This document shows positions 5,801 through 47,090 of a stretch of 54,160 nucleotides of DNA, in pieces. Below the pieces are notes generated by a model. It searched no databases, was not told the DNA's origin, and saw nothing but the letters and a program-made list of their open reading frames with translations. The translations under genes were made by a program, and so were the position numbers. This DNA is from a virus (lineage: Duplodnaviria; Heunggongvirae; Uroviricota; Caudoviricetes), in the IMG/VR virus record IMGVR_UViG_3300029305_003293, positions 1 to 54,160 of that record; one strand, written 5' to 3'. Position 1 is the stretch's first letter. Every line of letters starts with the position of its first letter.

Positions 5801-8800
5801 ATTATTATTCTTCTTCTCTTGTTAATGATTGGAATGGAACATCTTTAATTTGGGACGAAGAAAATGGTGCAGTATTTTCTACTATGATTGCGGCAGGTTC
5901 TAAAGATTCTGAAAATCGATTTACCGGTGTTATGATGGGCGACTGGGGCGCTAAAGGAGATGAATCTCTTGACACTCCTGGTATGTATGGTTATCATCAA
6001 GGTGAATAGAGTTTTGGATTTAAAACTGATGGTACTGGTTTTATCGGAAAATCTGGAAAAGGTCGTATTCAGTTTGATGGAACTGAGGCTATTATTAGCA
6101 ATGCGGATCGTAGTTGCTACATAAACTTGAATCCTATTAGTGTAAAAAATGGTCCTGCTAATATTAATAATTAGAGTTTCTCATCTAATTTTATGTATTG
6201 TAAAGTCCCTCGCGCGGAAAATAGTTTTACAAGTTTAACAGATGGAATTTTAGGAATTAATAGCTGGGTTAGAGAATATTTTAAAGATAGCAGTAATGAT
6301 TATTTTATTGTTGATCCTAATTATGGAGTTTTAACTACTGGCGGTATAGTTGCGAAGTATGGCGCTCTTGGCAATTGGATGATTAGTAATGAAGGTATGT
6401 ATCAAAAGTCTGAAGAAAATTAGGCTTATATGTATCTTGGTTTTGACGATATGAATATTAGCACAAGTAGTGCTTGGCAGGCAAGAGATGCTGAGATTGT
6501 AAAAGCGAAAAATGATTTAACTACTAAATATGAATAGTTAAATATAGTCAATTCTTAGATCGAAACCGCAAGTAAAGAAGTAGAAGAAGCTTTAGAGAAA
6601 TAGAGTAATGATAGTGAAAAATATAATTCTGAAATTGAAATATTAGAAAATTAGATTAAAGAATTAAATAATACCGTTATTGAATTAGAAAAATAGAATA
6701 GTGATTTAGAAAAAGATAATAAAGATAAAGAAGCAGCGATAATTGAAAAACAAGCATTAATTTAGGATTATTTAGATGCTAAGTTAAAAGCTTCTGAAAA
6801 TATCGATACTCATTATTTAGAGTTATATAATTTAAGATAGCAACTTCTTGATTTAGATTCTGAAAATGCTGTTAAACTTTCTGAAATTATTGATAATATA
6901 GCAAGGATTCAGAATGTTGAAACTGATTTAATTGCATTATAGGGATTATAGTTAGAATATGAAAATACTTATAATAATTTATTAAAACATGAAGAATAGA
7001 TATAGAATAATTTAACTACTATATAGAATACAATAAATGACCAATAGGCGCAGGTAGGTGTTTTACAGGCTGAATATAATACCTATTCTTCTCAAGAACA
7101 AACTCTTAATTCTGAAATTTTTATAGTTACTAATAATATTTCTAGTGCAGAGTAGAGTCTTTTAGAAAAAATGTAGAAGATTTACTCAAATGATGAATAC
7201 AGTGAAATAAAAACAACAGAAGAGTTTCAAAACGATTACAATGATAAATTAAATGAAATAGAAGATTTAGAAACAGAAATTTCACAAATTGAAAAAGATA
7301 TTGAAATTTTAGATAATTAGATAAAAGTCTTAACAGAAAATAATCAAGATAATATTAATGATGAACGAATTTCGGCATTGCAAGAACAAAGAACTAATTT
7401 AGTAAATGATCAAGAAGAAAAACAAGAAACATTAGATCATTTAATCGAAGATAAAAATTATTTATTTAATGTTCTTATTCCTAAATCTACTGAATTAGAT
7501 AATTTATATACTCAATTAGAAAATTTAAATAATCAATTAACAACAGTTTCTACAGCTCGTGAAAAAGCAGATTCTGATTTAAAATTATTAACTGAATCTT
7601 TAACTGCGAATCAAAATATTAAATAGTCTTATGCAAATGATTTAACATCAAATGCTTCTGAACTTTCAGCATTAAATAGTAAAGTTAATGTATTAAATAT
7701 AGATTTAAATAATATCTACGCTGCGGTAATGACTTTTAATGAGATAGAAAATTATTAGGAAAATATTATTTTTAGTAGTGAAGATATTAAAAGTTAGATA
7801 CAAGAATTATTAACTTTTACAAAAGAAAAATATACCCTTTTATCTAATACAGTAGATAATATTATTGATACTTTAACCACAGAAAAAGAATAGTAGGAAA
7901 AACTTATACAAGAAAATCCTGATGCTGTTTAGACAAATGAAAAAATATAGACTGTATCTGATAAAATTGAACAAGAACAAACTAATTTATAGAATGCCAT
8001 TGATAATATTAATAATACTAAAATAGAAATAAGTAATTTAGAAAATGCGATTATTTTAAATACAAAAACTATTGATAAAAATTTAATCTTAATATATGGT
8101 GGCTATATAATAGAACAAGATTCAACTACTTTTGTTGAAGGATACAATAATACTAAAAATGATTTACAAGATAAAATAAATAATTATATAATTGCGATTC
8201 GTAATTTAGAAACAAATGTTAAAAATAAAGAATTTGCGGTAGATGAATTAGAGCAATTACAAATCAATATTTAGTCAGAAATTGTTAAAATTATTTTTAA
8301 TTTAGATTAGCTGCAAAATATTATAAAAGACGCTTTATCAACACCATATGAATCTGGTACTTTTGTAGAAGAAAATAATGCATATATAGATACTATCGCG
8401 CGAATGAGATAGGCAATTGAAAAAATTATTTTTGAAGGATCTACAAGATATGCAATATATGTTGCCGATAAAGAGCCAAATTCATTAACAGTATAGTATG
8501 ATAGTCCGGTGTAGCCATATTTTTCTGTAGACTGGAATGGTACATTATTTGCAAGAAAAGGATTAATTGCAAATACTTGGACTATAGACGATACGAGTTT
8601 GACATATAGAAAAAATAATGATAAAATTTATATTGGTTAGGAGATACCTAATATTGGTTATGTACCTAACTATTCTTTATAGGATGAAACAAAAGAAAAA
8701 ACAACTGGTTGGGTAATATCTGCTGGCGAATCTATTATTAATGAAAACAAAGAAGAAGATTATACTGTAAAATTTGGTGTTACATTAAATGGTAGATTAT

Positions 8801-36900: not shown

Positions 36901-37530
36901 ATGTCTTTTATAATTGCAGAACATTATTATGATATTCTGAAAAATTTTACAATAGATTATACCCCGACTTGGGGATACATCCCTCTTGACGAAGATCGCA
37001 TAGTAGTTGATTTAGACACTCGTGAGATGTTTCTTCCGGACAGTCTTACAGATTTTATCGCAATGACCAACGATCATCGATCACAAACAGTTTATTTTGA
37101 AGTTGATAGATATTTTGAAGATGTCGATTTAGCTGGATTAACTTGTTGTGTTGAATATGTTACTCCTGAAGATAAAGAAAATAAAGTTGAAAGTAGATTT
37201 AGACTTTATCCAATTACTTTAAAGAGTATGATTAAGCAGGGAACAACTGAAAAATTATTACTTGCTTGGAATCTTGGATCAGAAGCGACTAGTCAAGCTG
37301 GTGTATTATCTTTTGCATTACATTTTTTTAAAGTTAATTTTGAAACTGAGAGTTTAGCATATAGTTTATATACTAAGCCCTGTTTTGGTAATATTTTAGA
37401 AGGTTTAGAAGCAATTACTTCTGATAAAGCGAAAGAGGAATCTTTAGCTTATTATGAAATTGAAGCAGAGCATTTTAAAATATTAACGGCTATGATTGAA
37501 TAGAAAAATGTATATTGGAATGATGTCTAA
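36901..37530 (+). CDS. BppU-like baseplate protein (209 aa)
   Basis: VDLDTREMFLP...YFEVDRYFEDVDL is paralogous to 35254. One TAG at 37501-37503, true stop TAA 37528-37530. Confidence 0.65.
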
Positions 37531-37568
37531 AATAGGATGGTCCGTCATGGACCATCCTATTTTTTTTA
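37531..37568 (+). terminator. Rho-independent terminator
   Basis: 13-bp stem AATAGGATGGTCC/GGACCATCCTATT followed by a long T-run. Confidence 0.85.
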
Positions 37569-37613
37569 TTTTTATTTATAATAGGAATAATAAAAGAAAG
37601 GAGCTGCTGAAGA

Positions 37614-38417
37614 TTGGCACTCTTTAAAATTTATAAGGGACCTGCTTCTAATCTTGGAAAAGCAGGTAATGTAACACAATATGCGCAAGAAGGTTTTGCA
37701 TATTTTACTTAGGATGATGGTAAATTTTATATTGATGTTGCTGGTGATGGAACCACTGAAGCAGTATTAGGAAATAATCGTTTACCATTAAACGCAGAAT
37801 AGGCAGATAAAGATTCTGCGGGTAATGTAATTAATGAAACTTATGTTACTATTGATTTAAATGATTCTGAACAAGGAAATCCTTCTGGCGTTAATGCAGA
37901 TACTCTAGGTGGAGTCTTAGCTTCTGATTATGCTTTAAAATCAGACTTAGACAATTTAACTGGATCAAATATAGATTTAAGTAATTATGTTACAAGAACT
38001 GAATTGGAAGAATATGTTCCAGATATTGATTTAACTGAATATTATACTAAAACCGAAACTGATGATAAATATGCTTTAAAATCAGATATTCAGTCTGGCG
38101 CAGTAAGATTAGATTTTACTGTTTCTTTACCAGCTTCGGGATGGAGTAATACTTCTCCTTATTCTCAATCAGTAACAGTTTCTGGCATTAGCGAAACTGA
38201 TTGGCCGCAAATGAGTCAAGATTTGTCTATGGCGACGGATGATACCGTTGATGATTTAGAAAAGAATTATGCTTATATTAAGTATGGTGAAGCAACCTTA
38301 GATACAATTACTTTTTATTGTTTAAAAGGTAAACCTACTGTTGATTTAACTTTGATTGGTCAAGTTCTCAGGGGGGGGGCTTCTAATTATGAAAGTGCGA
38401 TTGGAGTTGAATTTTAA
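37614..38417 (+). CDS. Accessory tail fibre protein (267 aa) with an in-frame G9 tract near its 3' end
   Basis: TTG start after AAGGAG; in frame with ORF 38004 through TAGs. Contains NADTLGGVLASDYALK and a C-terminal VSLPASGWS...PYSQ domain. Confidence 0.7.
38371..38379 (+). repeat. G9 homopolymer tract (in frame)
   Basis: Nine consecutive G directly in the sequence. Confidence 0.95.
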
Positions 38418-39523
38418 TGTATTTAGTTGAAAAAGAAGTTTTAACTTCTATTGCAGATAGAATTAGAAATAAAACAGGAAAAACTGATAAACTTACTTTC
38501 CCGGATGAATTTTTTGAAGAAATAAAAAATATTGAAACTAGTCCAGCGACGACATTGCCGGTATTGAATATGAATTATCCAGAAGATGTTATGGTAATGG
38601 AAGGTTTAAATGTTAATGCTAATTTTAATATTGTAATTACTGAGCCAGGAATACCAGCTATTTATACTTATTAGTAGTATTTTAATGGTCAAGCAGTGGA
38701 AGGCGCTAATAGTTCTAGTTTTTCTATTAATTAGGAAATTACAAAAGGAACATATAATGTATATTGTGAAATAACTAATGAAGCAGGGACGGTCACTAGT
38801 AGAATTAGTAATTTAATAGTAGAGAGTTATTTACCAGAATTTAGTTATTCTGGAACTTATAATTTAATTGAAGAAGGAAATTATAATTGGAAAATTAAAT
38901 TATTAACTAGTGGTGAGTTTATTTTTAGTAAACTTCATACTGATATAGAAGCTTTTCTTGTTGGAGGAGGCGGAAATGGCGGATATGATTGTGGTGGCGG
39001 TGGTGGAGGAGGAAAAACAGCTACTATAAATTATAATCCTAATATAAATGAAAGTTATACTATTACAATTGGAGGTTCTGGAGGCTCAACTTCCGCTTTT
39101 TCTACTACTGTTGCCGGTGGAAATGCTGGTGGTTCATGGAGTGCTGGACGAAAAGGGGGCACTGGCGGTTCCGGTGGCGGTGGAGGTTCAACTAATAATG
39201 GTGGAAAAGGTGGCTCTGATGGTGGTTCAGGAGGAAGCGGTTCTGGAAGCTACGGTTCTAGTGGAGGCGCAGGACAAGGAACAACTACTTATGAATTTGG
39301 AGATAGCTCATTAACTTTATATGCTGGTGGAGGCGGCGGTGGCGGAACTACTGGAGGTTCTGGCGGTGCTGGCGGCGGTGCAAAAGGCGGTTCTGGTACT
39401 GGAGTAAAAGGCTCTTCTGCTGTTGCAAATACAGGCGGCGGTGGCGGCGGAGGTAGTAATAAAAGTGGCCAAGGCGGAGCTGGTGGTTCTGGTATAGTAA
39501 TTATTCGTAATAAACGTTCTTAA
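38417..39523 (+). CDS. Ig-like plus glycine-rich-domain receptor-binding-type protein (368 aa)
   Basis: The frame continues past TAGTAG at 38672-38677 into FLVGGGGNGG...GGSGIVIIRN, the typical glycine-rich tail domain; TAA at 39521-39523. Confidence 0.8.
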
Positions 39524-39538
39524 TAAAAGGAGAAATAA

Positions 39539-40405
39539 ATGATTAATTTTTATCTTCCAGATTTTTATTATTATTACAATTTAAATATGGTTTTAATTAA
39601 TATATTAAAAAAAAATCCGGATTATTTTTATGATAATATAAAAATAGCAGCAATTTATGGCTCTTTTCCTGGACAAATATGGAATGGAGGTAGATTAGTT
39701 AGTGGTTTTTCTTATTCGGACAATATTGAAGCAACAATTAACAATTATAATGATTTAAATATTCCTATTAGACTTACCTATACTAATCCACTTTTGGATG
39801 AAACTCATTTAAATGATACATATTGTAATTTTATTACAAAAATTGCTAATAATGGGATGAATGAAATTGTTGTTAATTCTTAGATTTTGGAAGAATATTT
39901 AAGAGAAAAATATCCAAATTTTAAATATATTCTTTCAACTACAAAAAATATTCGAGATGTAAATGAAATAAATAAAAAAAGTAAAAAATATGATTTAATT
40001 GTAACTGATTATAGAGATAATAATAATGATATTTTTCTTAATAAAATAGAAAAAAAAGATAAAATAGAATTATTAATTAATGAATATTGTTCTCCTAATT
40101 GTAATCAAAGAGCTAATCATTATAAAGAATATGCGAAAGCACAATTAAATTTTATTTCTTTTCCTAATTTTTCTTTTGAGTGTAAATGTGGAGTAAGCAA
40201 TTTTTTTGAAAGTTTAAAACTTCCTACGGTTATAAAAGTTGAAGAACTATATAATAAATATTTAAAAATGGGTTTTAATAATTTTAAAATTGTTGGTCGT
40301 TCTATTCATATTTTAAATGTTATTGAAAGCTATGTTTATTATTTGGTAAAACCTGAATATAAAGATTTGGTAAGATTTGAATTAACACATTCCTGTTGGA
40401 ATTAA
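39539..40405 (+). CDS. Putative U32-family-like TIM-barrel enzyme (288 aa, one TAG)
   Basis: ORFs 39539 and 39887 are joined by TAG 39881-39883. Motifs IYGS...WNGGR, RLTYTN, ELLINEYCSPNCNQRANHY and FKIVGR resemble the U32-like family. Very AT-rich. Confidence 0.5.
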
Positions 40406-40424
40406 AATGGGAGGAAAATAACAA

Positions 40425-40697
40425 ATGAATTATGCACTAATTGAAAACAACATCATCACCAACATCATCTGGCTCTATCCCGGCAACGCATCCGATTTCC
40501 CGAATGCTGTGCCGTTAGATGATGTGCCTGCGAGCATAGGTGATGAATATATAGATGGAATATTTTACCGCAATGGTGAAAGAATCTTGACAGAAGTAGA
40601 AAATTTGCGTATAATTAATTAGGAGCAAGCAGAAACTATTGCTGAATTAGATTCTGCACTTTTGGACACTACATATGCAAATTTAGTAGGTGAATAA
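40425..40697 (+). CDS. Small tail-fibre-associated protein (90 aa)
   Basis: GGAGG RBS; MNYALIENNIITNIIWL is a type of gene commonly found after glycine-rich tail genes; reads through TAG 40620-40622. Confidence 0.75.
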
Positions 40698-40700
40698 TAA

Positions 40701-41243
40701 ATGGGAAAAGTTTTGTTTTTAAAAAATCTTACTCATACTAATATAATTGAAGCGCCAGAAACTGGCCCTGAACTTTTAAGTGATGCAACTGTTACTGCGC
40801 TTGCTAACAAAGGTGTTACTGCCGAGACTGGAGTATCTACTACTGATGATTTACCTAATTTAATTAATAGTATTGAATTAGGCACAAAAGTTTAGATTAA
40901 AACGGGATTTGTTACTCTAGGTGGGGATTATGGTAGTGCTACTGTAAATTGTGGCTTTGTTCCAGATTTAGTTATTTTACCACTTGAAGCAACTATAACT
41001 ACTGACTATGGAACTATGGAATATAACACTGTAGTAGATTTTTTACATAGATCTACTTCTTATCCGTTAGATGCGCTTTCAGCGGTTATGTTTGGAAATG
41101 TAGTATTTGAAAATCATACAGTTATGGATACAACTTCAAATGGTTTTGAAATTCAAGGCTGTTGGTTTGTAAATATTAGTGATGGTTCTGTTAATTTTGT
41201 TACTGGTACTTCAGTAGAATATGTAGCAGTAAAATATACTTAA
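40701..41243 (+). CDS. Accessory tail protein (180 aa)
   Basis: ORFs 40701 and 41016 are in frame through TAG; ends TAA. Confidence 0.7.
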
Positions 41244-41257
41244 CATTGGAGGAAAAT

Positions 41258-41410
41258 ATGAGTAATGTAATTTACAATGCTTGTAAGCGCACTATTCAAC
41301 GCGGCAATTATATTATTGAAGATATTAATCTTAAATTAGATGCTTTTGTTAAAGCAGAATTAATTACTAATGAACAATATGAAGAATTAAAGAATATAAT
41401 GGAGGGATAA
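41258..41410 (+). CDS. Small XkdX-like protein (50 aa; missing from ORF track)
   Basis: GGAGG RBS; KLDAFVKAELITNEQYEELK resembles small XkdX-like fibre partner proteins. Confidence 0.6.
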   Translation: MSNVIYNACKRTIQRGNYIIEDINLKLDAFVKAELITNEQYEELKNIMEG

Positions 41411-41413
41411 TAT

Positions 41414-42599
41414 ATGGCATTTTTAAAGCCTTAGAATCCCCATTAAAAAAGGTGAGGATTTTGTTTATCCTCTTACTACCGTTGATTAGATTATTTTAGA
41501 TGATAATTCTAGATTAAATTCTAAAATGGTAACGGTAGATTTAGATACTGAAAATGATGAAGTTTCAGAACTTCCCACAAGAGATGCGGAAACACTTGGC
41601 GGTATTCCTGCTAGTGAATATGCTTTAAAAGAAAATATTCCATCTCTTGAACCCTATGCATTAAAGATTGATACTGCTCCTGATTCTGCGATGCTGGGCG
41701 GCAAGGCCCCGGAATATTACATTTAGCCAAAAAATTTGCTGGACAACTCGGATTTCACGAACCCGGTGTGTTAGAGGGGTACAGATGTTCTTACATCCGC
41801 AGTTTCTGGCTATAAACTGGATCGATGGAAGCAAAATACAGGTGCAACAAATCTTGAACTATTATCCAACGGCGTTAAAATTACTAATACCAATGCTGGA
41901 AATGGTGCGTTCATGCTGTAGCAGATAGTAAAGTAGCCGCAGCGATTTGCAAATAAAGCATTAACGCTTGCTTTAAAAGTAAATGAAGTATCCAGCACAA
42001 ATGGGGTGTATGCACATGCGTTTATCGGATTTGTGTATGGAACTAGAGTATATACAAGCACTATTACAGCGCCAGGAATCTATATTGCCGTTCTAGAGCC
42101 ACAGAGCATAATGGATGACCTGACTGTTTGTGTTCGTCAAAATGGTGCAAGCACAGATGCAACGAACACAATAACCATCGAATGGATTGCCCTATACGAG
42201 GGTGCGTACACAATTGACACCCTACCGCCATATGTACCGAAGGAAAAAAATGCGGAATTGGATGCATGTCATGAACAACTGTATTATTTTGACTAGCTTT
42301 ATCAATTTATTGGTTCTGGATTTATAGCAATAGATGGAAACTACGCCCTTATATCTCTTCCAGTCCCTTATCTTAACGCAGACGCAAGGCCGACTGTGAT
42401 AGGAAATGTTCACATTGCAATTCCTACAGCAGCATTCGATGCTGCTCCAACTACATCTACTTTTTCAGCGGAACTCGCTAGCGATGGTTGGATTAGATTG
42501 CAATGTACGTTTGACACAACAGACACAACGATTGCTGGACAGCCTTGTGCTATTACAATCAGATCTGGCGATTTTCTACAAATCAGCCGCGAATTATAA
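41414..42599 (+). CDS. Tail fibre/receptor-binding protein, out of frame at CCCC 41438-41441
   Basis: ATG 41414 with GGAGG gives MAFLKPQNPH then TAA. Removing one C gives KPQNPIKKGEDFVYPLTTVDQII, matching the N-terminus of the paralogue at 43090 (KPQSPL...VFPLTTYDQVI). The body contains NLLDNSDFTNPVCQRG. Confidence 0.7.
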
Positions 42600-42611
42600 G
42601 GAGGAAACACA

Positions 42612-42974
42612 ATGGACGACTATATAGAGCAACCTTATATTGTTTACATCAAACCAGATGATGCACACCGTATCACTGCTGTAAATTCTAATGCGTTTCT
42701 TACTAACCTTACAGGATGGATGGAGATTGATCGGGGGTATACTCAACACTATTATCACGCGTAGGGCAATTACTTTCCTGATACCATTATGGACTAGCGT
42801 GGTATTTATCGTTATCTTTACACGCCTGATACTGAGCCCAAATGGCGCGAGCGAACGCAAGAAGAGATGGATGCGGATTATGTGGAGCCAACACCAACAC
42901 CCTCTCAATTAGATATCATTGAAGCTCAGGTAACCTACACTGCGATGATGACAGACACCCTGTTGGAGGTATAA
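42612..42974 (+). CDS. Tail fibre assembly/chaperone-like protein (120 aa; missing from ORF track)
   Basis: GAGGA RBS; contains ITAVNSNAFL...WMEIDRG...HAQGNYF where Q is TAG; ends TAA. Confidence 0.75.
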
Positions 42975-42977
42975 CCA

Positions 42978-43097
42978 ATGAAAGAAAAAATTATTAAATG
43001 GTATAAACTTGGACTGTGGACAAAAGAAATGGTTCAAAATGCCGTATTAAAAAATATTCTTACTCAAGAAGAAGCGGAGGAAATAATTAATGAATAA
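42978..43097 (+). CDS. XkdX-family small protein (39 aa)
   Basis: GGAGG RBS; MKEKIIKWYKLGLWTKEMVQNAVLKNILTQEEAEEII matches the XkdX pattern. Confidence 0.75.
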   Translation: MKEKIIKWYKLGLWTKEMVQNAVLKNILTQEEAEEIINE

Positions 43098-43557
43098 TTA
43101 TAAACCGCAAAGTCCATTAATAGTTAATGGAAATGGTGTTTTCCCATTAACTACTTATGATCAAGTTATAATGAATGATGGTTCTCGCTGGAACGGTGAA
43201 GCTAATAATATTCATATTGGTGAGAATGAGCCGGATGTAAAATATAAAGTATGGATTGATACTTCGGAAGAAACAACTACTGAATTGATGCGTTCTGACA
43301 GTATCATTTATATTGGTTTTTCTATTAATACAGAAGATTGGATTGACAATACTTATACTTTTAATCGAGCAGGTATTACTACATCTCATGTAGTAATTAA
43401 TCTTACTTTAGATGCAAATTCTCAAAAAAATCAAGTATCTGCATTAAATTGGGAAACTACACAAGATAATGTAATTTTATCAACTGAAACCATTCCATCT
43501 GGAAATATTACTGGATATATGATTTTACTTCCAGTAATTGATAGAACTAATGGATAA
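43090..43557 (+). CDS. Accessory tail protein (155 aa)
   Basis: Intact ORF; its N-terminus is paralogous to that of 41414. Confidence 0.7.
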   Translation: MNNYKPQSPLIVNGNGVFPLTTYDQVIMNDGSRWNGEANNIHIGENEPDVKYKVWIDTSEETTTELMRSDSIIYIGFSINTEDWIDNTYTFNRAGITTSHVVINLTLDANSQKNQVSALNWETTQDNVILSTETIPSGNITGYMILLPVIDRTNG

Positions 43558-43592
43558 AAAAATCCTCTTCTATAATTTAGAAGAGGATTTTT
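43558..43592 (+). terminator. Rho-independent terminator
   Basis: AAATCCTCTTCTA/TAGAAGAGGATTT stem with A and T flanks. Confidence 0.75.
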
Positions 43593-43620
43593 AAAATTAT
43601 AGTAAAGGAGTGGCTGAAGA

Positions 43621-44475
43621 TTGGCTACTTTTAAATATAGAGATAATAATGGAAATTTTATTTCAATGCCTGCCTTTAAAGGTGATAAAGGCGATCAAGG
43701 TGTTAGTATTTTAAAAGTTGAATAGACTACTACTTCATCTGAATCAAATGGTGAAAATATTATTACTGTTACTTTAACCAATGGACAAAGATTTAATTTC
43801 TCAATGCGCAATGGCGCAAAAGGTGAGACTGGTAACCATGGCGGCATTTAGGCAGTAACAACATCTGAAACGCCTGGTTTTATTAGTGTTACAAAGCAAG
43901 ACGGCACAATAGAAGATATCAGTATCGGTGCAGCATTAAACCTCATGCAAGATTCAACTACAACTAAGTCATATGTTTTAGGCACTACGTCTATAGATGA
44001 TATGGATTTAAAATTTAGCACTGGTGTTTATGTTGATTGCGCAAATGGTGTTCTTTATGGCGCGGCTTGGAACGATTATGCTGAATTCCGCGATCAAAAT
44101 GAATCCATTGAACCCGGTTATGTTGTCTATTGTGATGACGATGGAAAAGTGAAGAAAACAATTGAAAAACTTCAAAAATTTGAAGGTGTTGTTTCTGATA
44201 CTTATGGTTTTAGTATTGGTGAAACTGATACTTGTAAGACTCCTCTTGCAGTTTCTGGTAGAGTATTAGTTTATGCCGACCCTGAAGAAGAACATTTCCA
44301 TTCTGGTGATGCAGTTTGCGCGGGTCCAGATGGTTTAATATATAGAATGACAAGAGAAGAAATTATGGAATTTCCTGATCGTATTGTTGGTATTGTTTCT
44401 GAAATTCCAACTTATGACACTTGGGGAACTAATAATATTTCTGTAAACGGACGCATTTGGATAAAGGTGAGATAA
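43621..44475 (+). CDS. Tail spike/fibre protein with a C-terminal autocleaving chaperone-like (peptidase G2-like) domain (284 aa)
   Basis: TTG after AAGGAG; collagen-like GDKGDQG and VEQTTTS (Q=TAG); C-terminal WNDYAEFR...GVVSD...AVSGRVLV...GIVS. Confidence 0.65.
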
Positions 44476-44478
44476 AAT

Positions 44479-44970
44479 ATGGTTGGATCAAAAGAATTAT
44501 ATGATATTTTTGAAGTAATTTATCCAGTCGGAATTATTATTGAGCTTGCTACCGACGCCAATCCTAAAGATTTATTTGGGATTGGCGAATGGGAGTAGAT
44601 TAAAGATAGGTTTATTTTAGCGGCTGGAGAATCTCATAATCTTGACGAAACAGGCGGGTATTCTGAAACTCAATTAACTGTTTCTCATATGCCTTCTCAC
44701 ACACATGGAACTGGAAAAACTTCTTCAGCGAGTACTTATCCAGAATATTATTTTACAGTGAATAGAAGTACTTCTACATCTGCAGTTGGAAGAATGGGAT
44801 TGGCTTCTGGTTCATCATATTACGCAATGGGAACTAATACTAGCGCTTCTGACTCTATAGGTATTGATGATATTATTCAAATATCTAAAACTGGTGCGAC
44901 AGGAGAAGGTAAAGCCTTCTCCAATATGCCACCTTATTATGTCGCCTATATGTGGAAGAGGGTGGCGTAA
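44479..44970 (+). CDS. Baseplate/fibre protein with a T4 gp10 C-terminal-like domain (163 aa)
   Basis: IYPVG...NP...FG.GEWEQIKDRFILAAG...MPSHTH...NMPPYYVAYMWKRVA; joined to ORF 44689 through one TAG. Confidence 0.75.
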
Positions 44971-45569
44971 TTGAAAGGTATATTAACCGCCCCCCTATTC
45001 AAATTTTAAGTAAATCTGGTTCTACAATTTCTTTATCTGGACCAGGTTTACCAACTTAGACAATAACAGATAATAATACCACTTATAATGTAGCAACAGC
45101 ATCAGTCAATGGATTGTTAAGCGCTGATGATAAAGTTGCTCTTGACAAATTGAAAGAAGAATCTCCATATTTTTTAACTTATTATACTACAACTACTGGG
45201 GATACTGAAATAAGTGGAACAACAGTAGTAAAATTTAATGTAAAAGTTAGAGATACACATAATTCTTATGATACATCAACTGGTAAGTATACTGTCCCAA
45301 TAGCTGGAATATATTTATTTAATTTTAATTATTATACAAATAATAATACAACAGGAGGCTCTTATCGTCCTTGTATTCATATCGATGGAGGAGACTCGAG
45401 TGCAACTGTGCAAATGAGCTCTATGGCACCTGGCAGTATCTCAGTAATCGCCAGAATGCCAGAAGGAGCAACTGCCTATGTTGGTCCTTATTCTTCTAGT
45501 TATAAAATGGCTTTTTATGCAGGATTTTTACATACTAGTTTTAGTGGTACATTATTATCTTATATTTAA
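44971..45569 (+). CDS. C1q-like-domain tail protein, out of frame at C6 44990-44995
   Basis: TTG at 44971 after GAGGGTGG stops at TAA 45007-45009. One extra C gives MKGILTAPPIQILSK... in frame with the C1q-like body (SYDTSTGKYTVPIAGIYLFNF). Confidence 0.65.
44990..44995 (+). repeat. C6 homopolymer tract
   Basis: ACCG-CCCCCC-TATT, about 7 codons after the start. Confidence 0.9.
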
Positions 45570-45590
45570 TATAAAGGGAATGATTTATTT

Positions 45591-45949
45591 ATGATAGGCA
45601 TTGCAGCCCCCCCCTGTTAAATAAAATATTAGAAATTAATTCTTTATATAATAAATTAAATAATGAAAAAGCAATTACTTTTGAACAAGAAATTGTAATT
45701 GAAACTACTGACTGGAATGATACTGCTCCTTATATTTGCACTAAAGAAATGGATGGAGTTATTCTTGGAGATAAGCCTTTTGTAGATATTAATTTGGATT
45801 ATTATTCTACATTAGATGAAAAATTATCAGCAAAAGAGAATTGGATATATGTAGATGATATTTCAGGAGGAATGAATAATGTTATTTTTACTTGTTTAGA
45901 AAATAAACCTGAAGTAACATTATCTATTTCTTGTAAGGTGGTGCATTAA
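45591..45949 (+). CDS. Accessory tail protein, out of frame at C8 45607-45614
   Basis: ATG 45591 gives MIGIAAPPC then TAA. C6 or C9 would give an open frame containing EIVIETTDWNDTAPY...FTCLENKPEVTL, homologous to the C-terminal domain of 37614. The body frame has no ATG/GTG/TTG between TGA 45581 and the tract. Confidence 0.7.
45607..45614 (+). repeat. C8 homopolymer tract
   Basis: GCAG-CCCCCCCC-TGTTAA. Confidence 0.95.
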
Positions 45950-45951
45950 TA

Positions 45952-46710
45952 ATGAGTGGTTTTATTACTCGTCGTGGCGGAGGAAGTAATTTAAAAATTA
46001 TTCAAGCAACTTCATTACCATCAAAAGGAAAAGATGGACAATTAATTATTATTAGCTCTATTCCAATTAATAATATTACTTATAATACAACAACAACTAA
46101 ACCAAGCAATCCTGTAAATGGAGATCTTTTTATTTGTTTTGGGATATCTGATTATCATAAAGTATTACAATATACAACAACAAACTCTTGGAATAGCGTA
46201 GATAGTTATGTGTGGATCAATAGTAGTTGGATTTAGTTTACTCGTAAATCTTTAGTAATTTTTGATGGAATTTTACATGATTCTTATTCAACTTTACAAG
46301 TAAGAAAAGGTTCTGGTGGTTCATCAGGATATTGGAAAGTAACTTCTTCAGTCTTAAAATTATATGCTCCTGCAGCGACAGAGTCTTGCTAGTTAGGTAG
46401 TTTTTCTAATAAAATTGATACTGGAGCTTGGTCAACTTGTTCTGTTAAAGCTACGGTGCGAGGATGGAATGGTGGTTGGTGGGGTTTTGCGCCGGCTTTT
46501 GCTTCTGTGGGAATATTATCTTCTAATTATACCACTGGATATACAAAAATTCAAAGACCAACTACTACATCCAATTCATCTGTCACAGGAATTTATAATA
46601 TTGATGTTAGCAGTTTAACCGGGACTTACGATTTAGTATTTGGTATTGCAGGATCGGGAGGGTCTAATTATACAGGAGAATTTAATATTAGTTCTATTAT
46701 TTTAACTTAA
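45952..46710 (+). CDS. Receptor-binding-type tail protein (252 aa, two TAG)
   Basis: MSGFITRRGGGS start; ORFs 45952 and 46456 are in frame; Ser/Thr/Gly beta-rich C-terminus. Confidence 0.7.
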
Positions 46711-46718
46711 AAATTTTT

Positions 46719-46754
46719 CGGGTGCACTTTGTTAAGAAGTCGCACCCAATTTTT
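46719..46754 (+). terminator. Terminator hairpin followed by TACTATAT
   Basis: GGGTGC-ACTT...AAGT-C-GCACCC followed by AATTTTT. Confidence 0.65.
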
Positions 46755-46763
46755 ACTATATAG

Positions 46764-47090
46764 TGAAGGGAAGGAGATTTCCTTAACAAGAGCAATTCTT
46801 TACAGTAGTAAAGTCTGGGCGACGACGGTTAAGAAATCATATCTAAACTTCAAGATATAATGTGAGGGAAGGAACCAGTGGGCTCCTTCAGTAACTTCAC
46901 AGTTAACCTACGCGAGTATGTTTATCCACAGTGTTGTTACAGACGCTGCTGGAAAAACATATGGAGGATTAATAAGCAGATGTTGTGTTGGCACTAACGC
47001 CGTTTTGAGATATACATATAATTATAGGGTCTGCTTCCTCAGTTTAAATTTGGTGCGCCCTTTGGGCACCTGTGGGTAAACTACTTCAGC
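46764..47090 (+). ncRNA. Candidate structured non-coding RNA (family unrecognised)
   Basis: A ~330-nt non-coding gap, more GC-rich than its flanks, with at least 12 nested complementary pairings (listed in findings). Strand is inferred from the upstream -10-like TACTAT. Confidence 0.6.

Follow-up and report, generated by a model that had tools for sequence, protein, structure and literature searches.

The stretch analysed here (the window; 54,160 base pairs, bp) is positions 1 to 54,160 of the tailed-phage record IMGVR_UViG_3300029305_003293 in IMG/VR, and its tail-fibre module carries runs of C within the first codons of fibre genes (a run of n residues is written Cn or Gn; a gene is on when its leader is in frame with its body, and off otherwise). 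Judged from this sequence and its relatives, tracts of the type found in two of these genes, a C6 in the gene of a C1q-like fibre tip and a C8 in the gene of a small tip-domain protein, are probably slippage-driven on/off switches of host-recognition fibre proteins of the classical contingency type. The tracts are genuine features that exceed chance expectation and recur at conserved positions, their lengths differ between on and off in near-identical relatives, and the C1q gene, which is off in the consensus, is kept intact by purifying selection; we favour switching because of these observations together with the use of a rare codon in the runs and the mixed states among lineages.

Slipped-strand mispairing during replication of the phage DNA would gain or lose a C. 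Depending on the resulting length, leader and body would or would not share a frame, and the gene would yield a full-length fibre tip in the one case and a peptide of 9-12 residues in the other. In the strain sequenced here, both the C6 gene of the C1q-like tip and the C8 gene of the tip-domain protein are off, and the fibre gene starting at 41414 is off because a C3 run has gained one C, a similar but slower event. Within populations we infer switching that is frequent and reversible, and we further infer that it affects which bacteria can be infected. An initial annotation of the window had proposed that slippage switches alternative fibre genes at four tracts; the proposal stands for the C6 and C8 type, for which a C6 off state is matched by a C7 on state, and falls for a G9 and a C4.

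Results

Tract length and reading frame of the C1q-like tip gene

In the C1q gene (44971-45569; Table 1), C6 leaves a 12-residue leader peptide, whereas C7, found in the related contig L027, gives the full-length protein P0122 of 199 amino acids (aa). The TTG and ATG starts of the leader genes have a Shine-Dalgarno-like site at the correct spacing. All seven homologues of the C1q gene (67-96% identity) carry the leader in frame, with the N-terminus MKGILTAPPIQIL, MKGIVTAPP or MLGYLAPPP. The leader had been proposed to be the N-terminus of the C-run genes, and intact C1q homologues that start with MKGILTAPPIQIL bear this out. An in-frame GTG at 44952 was considered as the start and rejected, since it has no ribosome site, in the relative L021 the corresponding GTG is part of the Shine-Dalgarno sequence that precedes the ATG leader, and all intact homologues begin with the leader.

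Comparison of tract lengths in relatives, which the initial annotation had named as a check, revealed C6, C7 and C8 at the same codons of this leader. The tract is C6 and off in this phage, and also in L021, L038 and L039, which represent one phage from three samples and are ~95% identical to the window here. It is C7 and on in L027, which is 99.974% identical to L021 over 11,672 nucleotides (nt), and C8 and on in L028 (~82% identical), in which a CCT became CCC. The distant orthologues are on and run-less, with GCA CCT CCT CCC in L029 and L030 and GCC CCA CCA in L031. L021 and L027 differ at three positions over the 11,672 nt, two of which are at the tract. A separate length difference was seen between two of the C6 contigs: L038 (at ~3313) lacks 49 nt relative to L021 (5183-5233), in the interval that separates the C1q leader from the small gene following the Gp10_C gene.

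Mixed states were also found within single fibre modules. The module of L028 has five tracts within 3.5 kb, three on (C8 in MIGLGKTAPP, C8 in the C1q gene and C9 in MKGLTIATPP) and two off (G9 in the middle of a Gp10_C gene and C11 in MVGIGAPPP), and L031 has an additional C7 tract that is on. In L014, MKGILTAPP stands in frame and run-less on a different gene of 295 aa, and MIGIAAP is followed by a C5 that is off. An unrelated standard-code phage with 29% GC, L017 (IMGVR_UViG_3300012979_000037), has its second Gp10_C gene off at a G8 (6471-6478) 23 codons into the gene, where G7 or G10 would restore the frame. L017 was the only informative one of five IMG/VR loci retrieved with the Gp10_C protein, all of which were distant (31-38% identity). 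Close relatives were found neither in the INPHARED phage records nor in IMG/VR, and when the leader pattern was sought in JGI metagenome contigs and in GTDB genomes, the result was empty or consisted of chance matches. The contig L001 was discarded as a relative, as it matched only a generic NTTYNVAT...DK..LD fibre motif.

The ratio of nonsynonymous to synonymous substitution rates (dN/dS) of the C1q body between this strain and L021, both C6, was 0.069, with 20 nt and 4 aa differences over 189 codons, and it was 0.18-0.32 in the other differing pairs. A ratio of 0.07 indicates that the C1q gene is not decaying and is under strong purifying selection. Such selection was measured for the C1q body only; the bodies behind C4 and C8 are open and have no close orthologue for the comparison. 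According to the initial annotation, a fixed off length in all relatives with further decay of the genes would point to pseudogenes; for the C1q gene, L027 is C7 and on, and the dN/dS is 0.069. A contingency locus is expected to have a mutable 5' tract of ~7 nt or more, a tract length that differs between near-identical genomes and toggles a full-length against a truncated product, and an intact gene under purifying selection. C8 and the C7-C11 leaders of relatives reach this length, C6 is borderline, and G9 reaches it too, though at the 3' end of its gene; C6 against C7 in L021 and L027 provides the length difference, C7 against C6 the full-length and truncated products, and the C1q body the purifying selection.

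Separately, a 13-bp hairpin was predicted inside the C1q gene at 45010-45051 on the plus strand (-16.8 kcal/mol, z -3.3), and all six orthologues retain it. The 5' arm does not vary across the six despite a dS of up to ~0.9, and changes are one-sided only, a pattern that indicates constraint at the nucleotide level.

Tract lengths in independent assemblies

Homopolymers are error-prone on some platforms, and a sequencing or assembly error could in principle have produced the out-of-frame lengths. We consider this very improbable. Independently assembled contigs of this strain (JGI, ENA) were found by exact-protein look-up and were 99.8-100% identical to the window; they had the same tract lengths, which were read in six contigs for C8, four for C4, two for G9 and one for C6. 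Logan also has a contig of the strain. In several further records, compared at the level of gene positions, the genes were spaced identically, and none of the recovered contigs of this strain ended at a tract. The strain is present in the samples JGI 3300018475, 3300018493-95, 3300022660, 3300024268, 3300024270, 3300024303, 3300029705, 3300031555 and 3300032167, ENA ERZ27248306, ERZ27248314, ERZ27248351, ERZ27248370 and ERZ27248446, and SRR7031497, and its relatives are in SRR12529362, SRR12529335, SRR28204438 and SRR31605623. Because independent contigs from different samples and assemblers share identical lengths, the tracts are not assembly errors, and the out-of-frame lengths are the true consensus of this strain. 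The argument of the initial annotation against sequencing error, that the A and T runs show no frameshift, is sound for part of them: of the 41 A/T runs of at least 8 in the whole genome, 15 lie well within long open frames and are unbroken, which also speaks against error, but another 15 lie outside any open reading frame (ORF) of at least 100 aa and the remaining 11 lie no more than 60 nt from an ORF end.

Homopolymer census and codon usage

The complete genome is 173,283 bp long with a 150-bp terminal overlap, and the window represents its first 54 kb (33.6% GC). The G9, C6 and C8 of Table 1 are the sole G/C runs of at least 6 in the window, and the three C runs (C4, C6 and C8) occupy codons 6-9 after a start codon and put each gene out of frame; both points agree with the initial annotation. 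The rest of the genome has a single additional G/C run of at least 6, a G9 at 147650-147658. G runs of length 6-8 are absent from the whole genome, so the long G runs are outliers. For runs of at least 8, about 0.02-0.35 would be expected per base type (Markov orders 1-4), and three were observed. CCC is the least-used proline codon (7.7% of proline codons), and among 33 Pro-Pro pairs in ORFs of at least 200 aa CCCCCC is never used.

The second G9 (L041, 1651-1659) sits in a ~340-nt gap between gene blocks and is not in a fibre gene. The ATG immediately 5' of it starts a low-complexity ORF of 112 codons that is doubtful as a gene, and a terminator-like hairpin lies ~65 nt upstream.

Table 1. 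Coordinates of the tracts and of the genes that carry or adjoin them
Feature	Position	Strand	Description
Fibre gene, 267 aa	37614..38417	+	Widespread fibre tip domain in the C-terminal 90 aa
G9 tract	38371..38379	+	In frame, 15 codons ahead of the stop of ORF 37614-38417
C4 fibre gene, leader frame	41414..41446	+	ATG 41414 reads MAFLKPQNPH, then stop; one extra C at 41438-41441 (C4)
C4 fibre gene, body frame	41427..42599	+	390 codons open; large fibre family
phrog_24451 member (120 aa) and XkdX-like gene (39 aa)	42612..43097	+	Downstream of the C4 fibre gene
Gp10_C-domain baseplate/fibre gene	44479..44970	+	PF21939, E 4e-18; stop abuts the TTG start of the C1q gene
C1q gene, leader frame	44971..45009	+	TTG 44971 reads MKGILTAPLFKF, then stop; GAGGGTGG 6 nt upstream
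C6 tract	44990..44995	+	Codons 7-9, off phase; C7 would give MKGILTAPPIQIL...
C1q/TNF-like fibre tip body	44996..45569	+	190 codons, intact; PF00386, E 1e-8
C8 gene, leader frame	45591..45620	+	ATG 45591 (not 45592) reads MIGIAAPPC, then stop
C8 tract	45607..45614	+	Codons 6-8, off phase; C9 or C6 would restore the frame
C8 gene, body (~119-aa protein)	45615..45949	+	Little beyond the fibre tip domain; frame open from 45584

A leader cassette shared by unrelated fibre bodies

The C6 and C8 genes had been noted to share a leader. The shared element is wider: a 5' unit made up of a ribosome site, GATTTATTTA(A)ATG and a leader of the form M-x-G-(I/L)-x-x-A-P-P is nearly identical ahead of several unrelated bodies, namely a C1q head, Gp10_C-type proteins, the tip domain and coiled-coil fibres, and it also occurs in relatives. 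In the leaders that carry a tract, the Ala-Pro-Pro codons are a G followed by the run of C.

Rearrangements of the module have breakpoints close to these elements. L021 lacks 45607-46643, a deletion that removed the C8 ORF and the neighbouring gene of 252 aa; one of its ends lies inside the leader, at an ATTGCAG microhomology, and the ATG is changed to ATA. L021 also lacks 38390-40410, which contains the Gly-rich and U32-like genes, and this break lies 10-16 nt past the G9 position. The junctions at the leader and just past G9 place both long tracts at cassette borders. It is conceivable, although we regard it as speculative and rather improbable, that the unit of ribosome site, leader and poly-C is a portable switch cassette in which the leader is a docking peptide of interchangeable tips and the site is a recombination joint, off alleles being leaky through -1 slippage on the rare CCC and tract length acting as a rheostat of tip stoichiometry.

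The small tip-domain gene with the C8 tract

The body behind the C8 tract consists mostly of the ~90-aa tip domain, which in 245 representative homologues is always at the extreme C-terminus and ends in ..VVR. Leaders of the MIGIAAP type elsewhere have C5 (L014) and C11 (L028), both off. Gene callers split or drop genes with tracts of this kind, and the public calls for the tract genes of this region are fragments of 66 and 151 aa.

Observations that weigh against switching

Several observations count against the interpretation as switches, and two of them concern whole tracts. The first is the G9. It starts exactly at the canonical end of the tip domain in ORF 37614-38417, the product of which matches the body of the C8 ORF in BLASTP (E 8e-8) with an alignment that terminates at ...GQVLR. 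With G8, G9 or G10 at 38371, all three frames stop within 20 codons, just beyond the conserved domain, so that a change in G9 would alter only a short C-terminal tail and perhaps translational coupling to the next gene. As read from these frames, G9 is a tract of the same mutable kind that is unable to turn its own ORF off. Its inclusion among the on/off switches in the initial annotation was therefore not upheld, given the position at the 3' end and the stops in every frame. Fusion of ORF 37614-38417 to the next gene by a change in length was likewise rejected, as both other frames stop within 20 codons. The relative L021 has AGAGAGG at the G9 position.

The gene that follows (38417-39523) encodes a 368-aa protein that begins with a LTSIADRIRNKTGK-type N-terminus and is Gly-rich over a long C-terminal half (PF21722); L021 does not have this gene. 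Its start codon and the stop codon of the G9 gene overlap in TAATG.

The second is the C4. The body of the gene at 41414 matches the tail-fibre family phrog_4492 (E 1e-6), and the gene belongs to a family of over 900 fibre proteins (902 homologues). Intact N-termini of this family (MAYLKPQSPIKYKEDYIYPPTTIDQII and similar), including those of P0004, P0014 and P0036 among others, align across the C4 break, as does the paralogue at 43090. L021 has C3 at this site, with the gene intact and in frame, and C4 is too short for a mutable tract of ~7 nt or more. By this comparison, C4 arose when an ordinary insertion of one base lengthened a C3 run, which relatives have intact, and we do not retain it as a phase-variation tract.

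Further points bear on the C6 and C8 type itself. All recovered contigs of this strain share one length per tract, and all C-run genes are off in them; the contigs are essentially one clone, so the uniform lengths are weak evidence against switching. A single near-identical on/off pair was found (L021 and L027). C6 off is the majority state in two lineages ~5% apart, which is unfavourable since a fast switch would be expected to scramble the state. As hypermutable tracts, C4, C5 and C6 are short. A collection of 5.8 billion proteins contained no in-frame version of the C8 ORF, and L021 has lost this gene by deletion.

Gene decay as an alternative

Some of these points are also what would be expected if three accessory fibre genes had been inactivated by ordinary frameshifts and were on their way to loss, an alternative that we consider unlikely for the set as a whole. 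None of the contigs of this strain has any of the three genes on, a deletion in L021 has removed the C8 ORF together with its neighbour, the break at C4 results from one base inserted into a short run, and the protein collection holds no intact close homologue of the C8 ORF. Yet the three breaks all lie in C runs within the first 10 codons, and none was found elsewhere in ~700 otherwise open codons. Decay is also contradicted by the dN/dS of 0.07 for the C1q body, by the conservation of the tract in relatives, in which it also occurs in frame, and by the use of rare CCC codons specifically at the tract sites. Plain decay is in keeping with the break at C4 and perhaps with the C8 ORF, but not with the C1q gene.

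Programmed recoding as an alternative

The off alleles might instead be expressed by programmed recoding, through a -1 slip (C_CCC_CCC at C8, CCC_C at C6), a +1 shift on CCC_C (C4) or stuttering of RNA polymerase. The tract would then fix a low level of expression instead of acting as a DNA switch, and recoding may coexist with DNA slippage as leakiness. As the explanation of the tracts, recoding seems to us doubtful. A slippery sequence in the correct frame is present at C8 (C_CCC_CCC, a perfect X_XXY_YYZ heptamer in the leader frame) and at C4 (CCC_C, a +1-prone context), and C6 permits P-site slippage only. Zero-frame stops follow 2-5 codons past each tract, CCC is rare, the 34 transfer RNAs (tRNAs) of the phage do not include one for proline, and the off state of C6 persists in two lineages while the C1q body is under purifying selection; all of these would suit recoding. 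However, the orthologues are in frame (C7 in L027, C8 in L028, run-less in L029, L030 and L031, and C3 at the C4 site in L021), and the out-of-frame layout is therefore not conserved, which counts against it. Moreover, the loci would need opposite shift directions. A stimulatory structure 5-9 nt downstream was not found after C8 (z 0.06) or C4 (z -1.15), and the hairpin after C6 begins 14 nt away and is also present in run-less, in-frame orthologues.

Programmed +1 frameshifting at CCC codons occurs in structural genes of Listeria phages. The C4 site resembles these sites in having a CCC proline codon near a zero-frame stop, and differs from them in that the relative L021 has C3 in frame, so that the shift is not conserved. 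Decoding of a CCCC quadruplet by a frameshift-suppressor tRNA-Pro was considered and rejected: it would mend C4 and the C5 of L014 and not C6 or C8, and ARAGORN detected no tRNA-Pro. Slipped-strand switching remains the reading that we prefer for the C6 and C8 type.

Genetic code, tRNA genes and probable host

With TAG read as Gln (translation table 15), ORFs of 2,461, 2,352 and 1,739 aa appear, and table 11 gave fragments only. As the long genes are visible only when TAG is read as Gln, this code is required for gene finding. ARAGORN detected 34 tRNA genes at 109226-122800, which cover most amino acids and include a CUA suppressor and a tRNA with a UCA anticodon; tRNA-Pro was absent among the 34. 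Proline codons are those that form the putative switch tracts. The region at 34-48 kb is the tail-fibre module and terminates in an endolysin with SpoIID, NlpC/P60 and SH3 domains; these domains suggest that the host is probably a member of the Bacillota.

Discussion

If the interpretation is true, phage-encoded homopolymer phase variation of receptor-binding proteins reaches beyond Campylobacter, to large TAG-recoded gut phages of Bacillota. Since gene callers split or drop genes with such tracts, fibre repertoires and host-range predictions derived from metagenomes are systematically incomplete there. The conserved leader offers a simple sequence signature for finding further cases.

Other phages vary the receptor-binding end of the tail within a lineage by different means, of which the account in PMC10579305 mentions the invertible G and C segments of Mu and P1 and the diversity-generating retroelement of Bordetella phage BPP-1. 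The purpose is the same; those systems use a site-specific invertase or a reverse transcriptase, whereas a poly-C switch of the kind proposed here would need neither. The inferred mechanism, slippage at a homopolymer in the 5' coding region that reversibly turns a surface-recognition protein on or off, is that of bacterial contingency loci in surface genes of Campylobacter, Neisseria and Haemophilus. Unlike those loci, the tracts described here are in a virus genome, and how fast they change would be governed by the phage replisome and by mismatch repair in the host.

The closest parallel is provided by the Campylobacter Fletchervirus phages, for which hypermutable polyG tracts in receptor-binding-protein genes have been described (Sorensen et al. 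2021, Cell Rep 35:109214, as cited in PMC10579305 and PMC10877375). Phage homopolymer switching outside Campylobacter phages appears to be undescribed in the literature: Fletchervirus was the sole published phage case that we found, in line with the statement of the initial annotation that no such system was known for Bacillota or code-15 phages. As far as the citing accounts describe them, both systems have G/C homopolymers within fibre or receptor-binding genes, a tract length that sets the frame, several tracts per genome, and on and off states among relatives. The two differ in the host, here probably a member of the Bacillota, in the TAG=Gln code and in the shorter tracts (C6-C11) of the present phages, whose putative system has been described from sequence. 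They also differ in that most tracts here lie in one conserved polyproline leader, at codons 6-10, which is common to unrelated fibre bodies. Homology with Fletchervirus was not detected, as tblastn of the in-frame C1q tip (P0122) against 50,697 phage records gave no match, nor did megablast of 37500-47000 against the phage collection. The system is thus an analogue of the Fletchervirus polyG system in another phage lineage and host phylum, with a shared polyproline leader.

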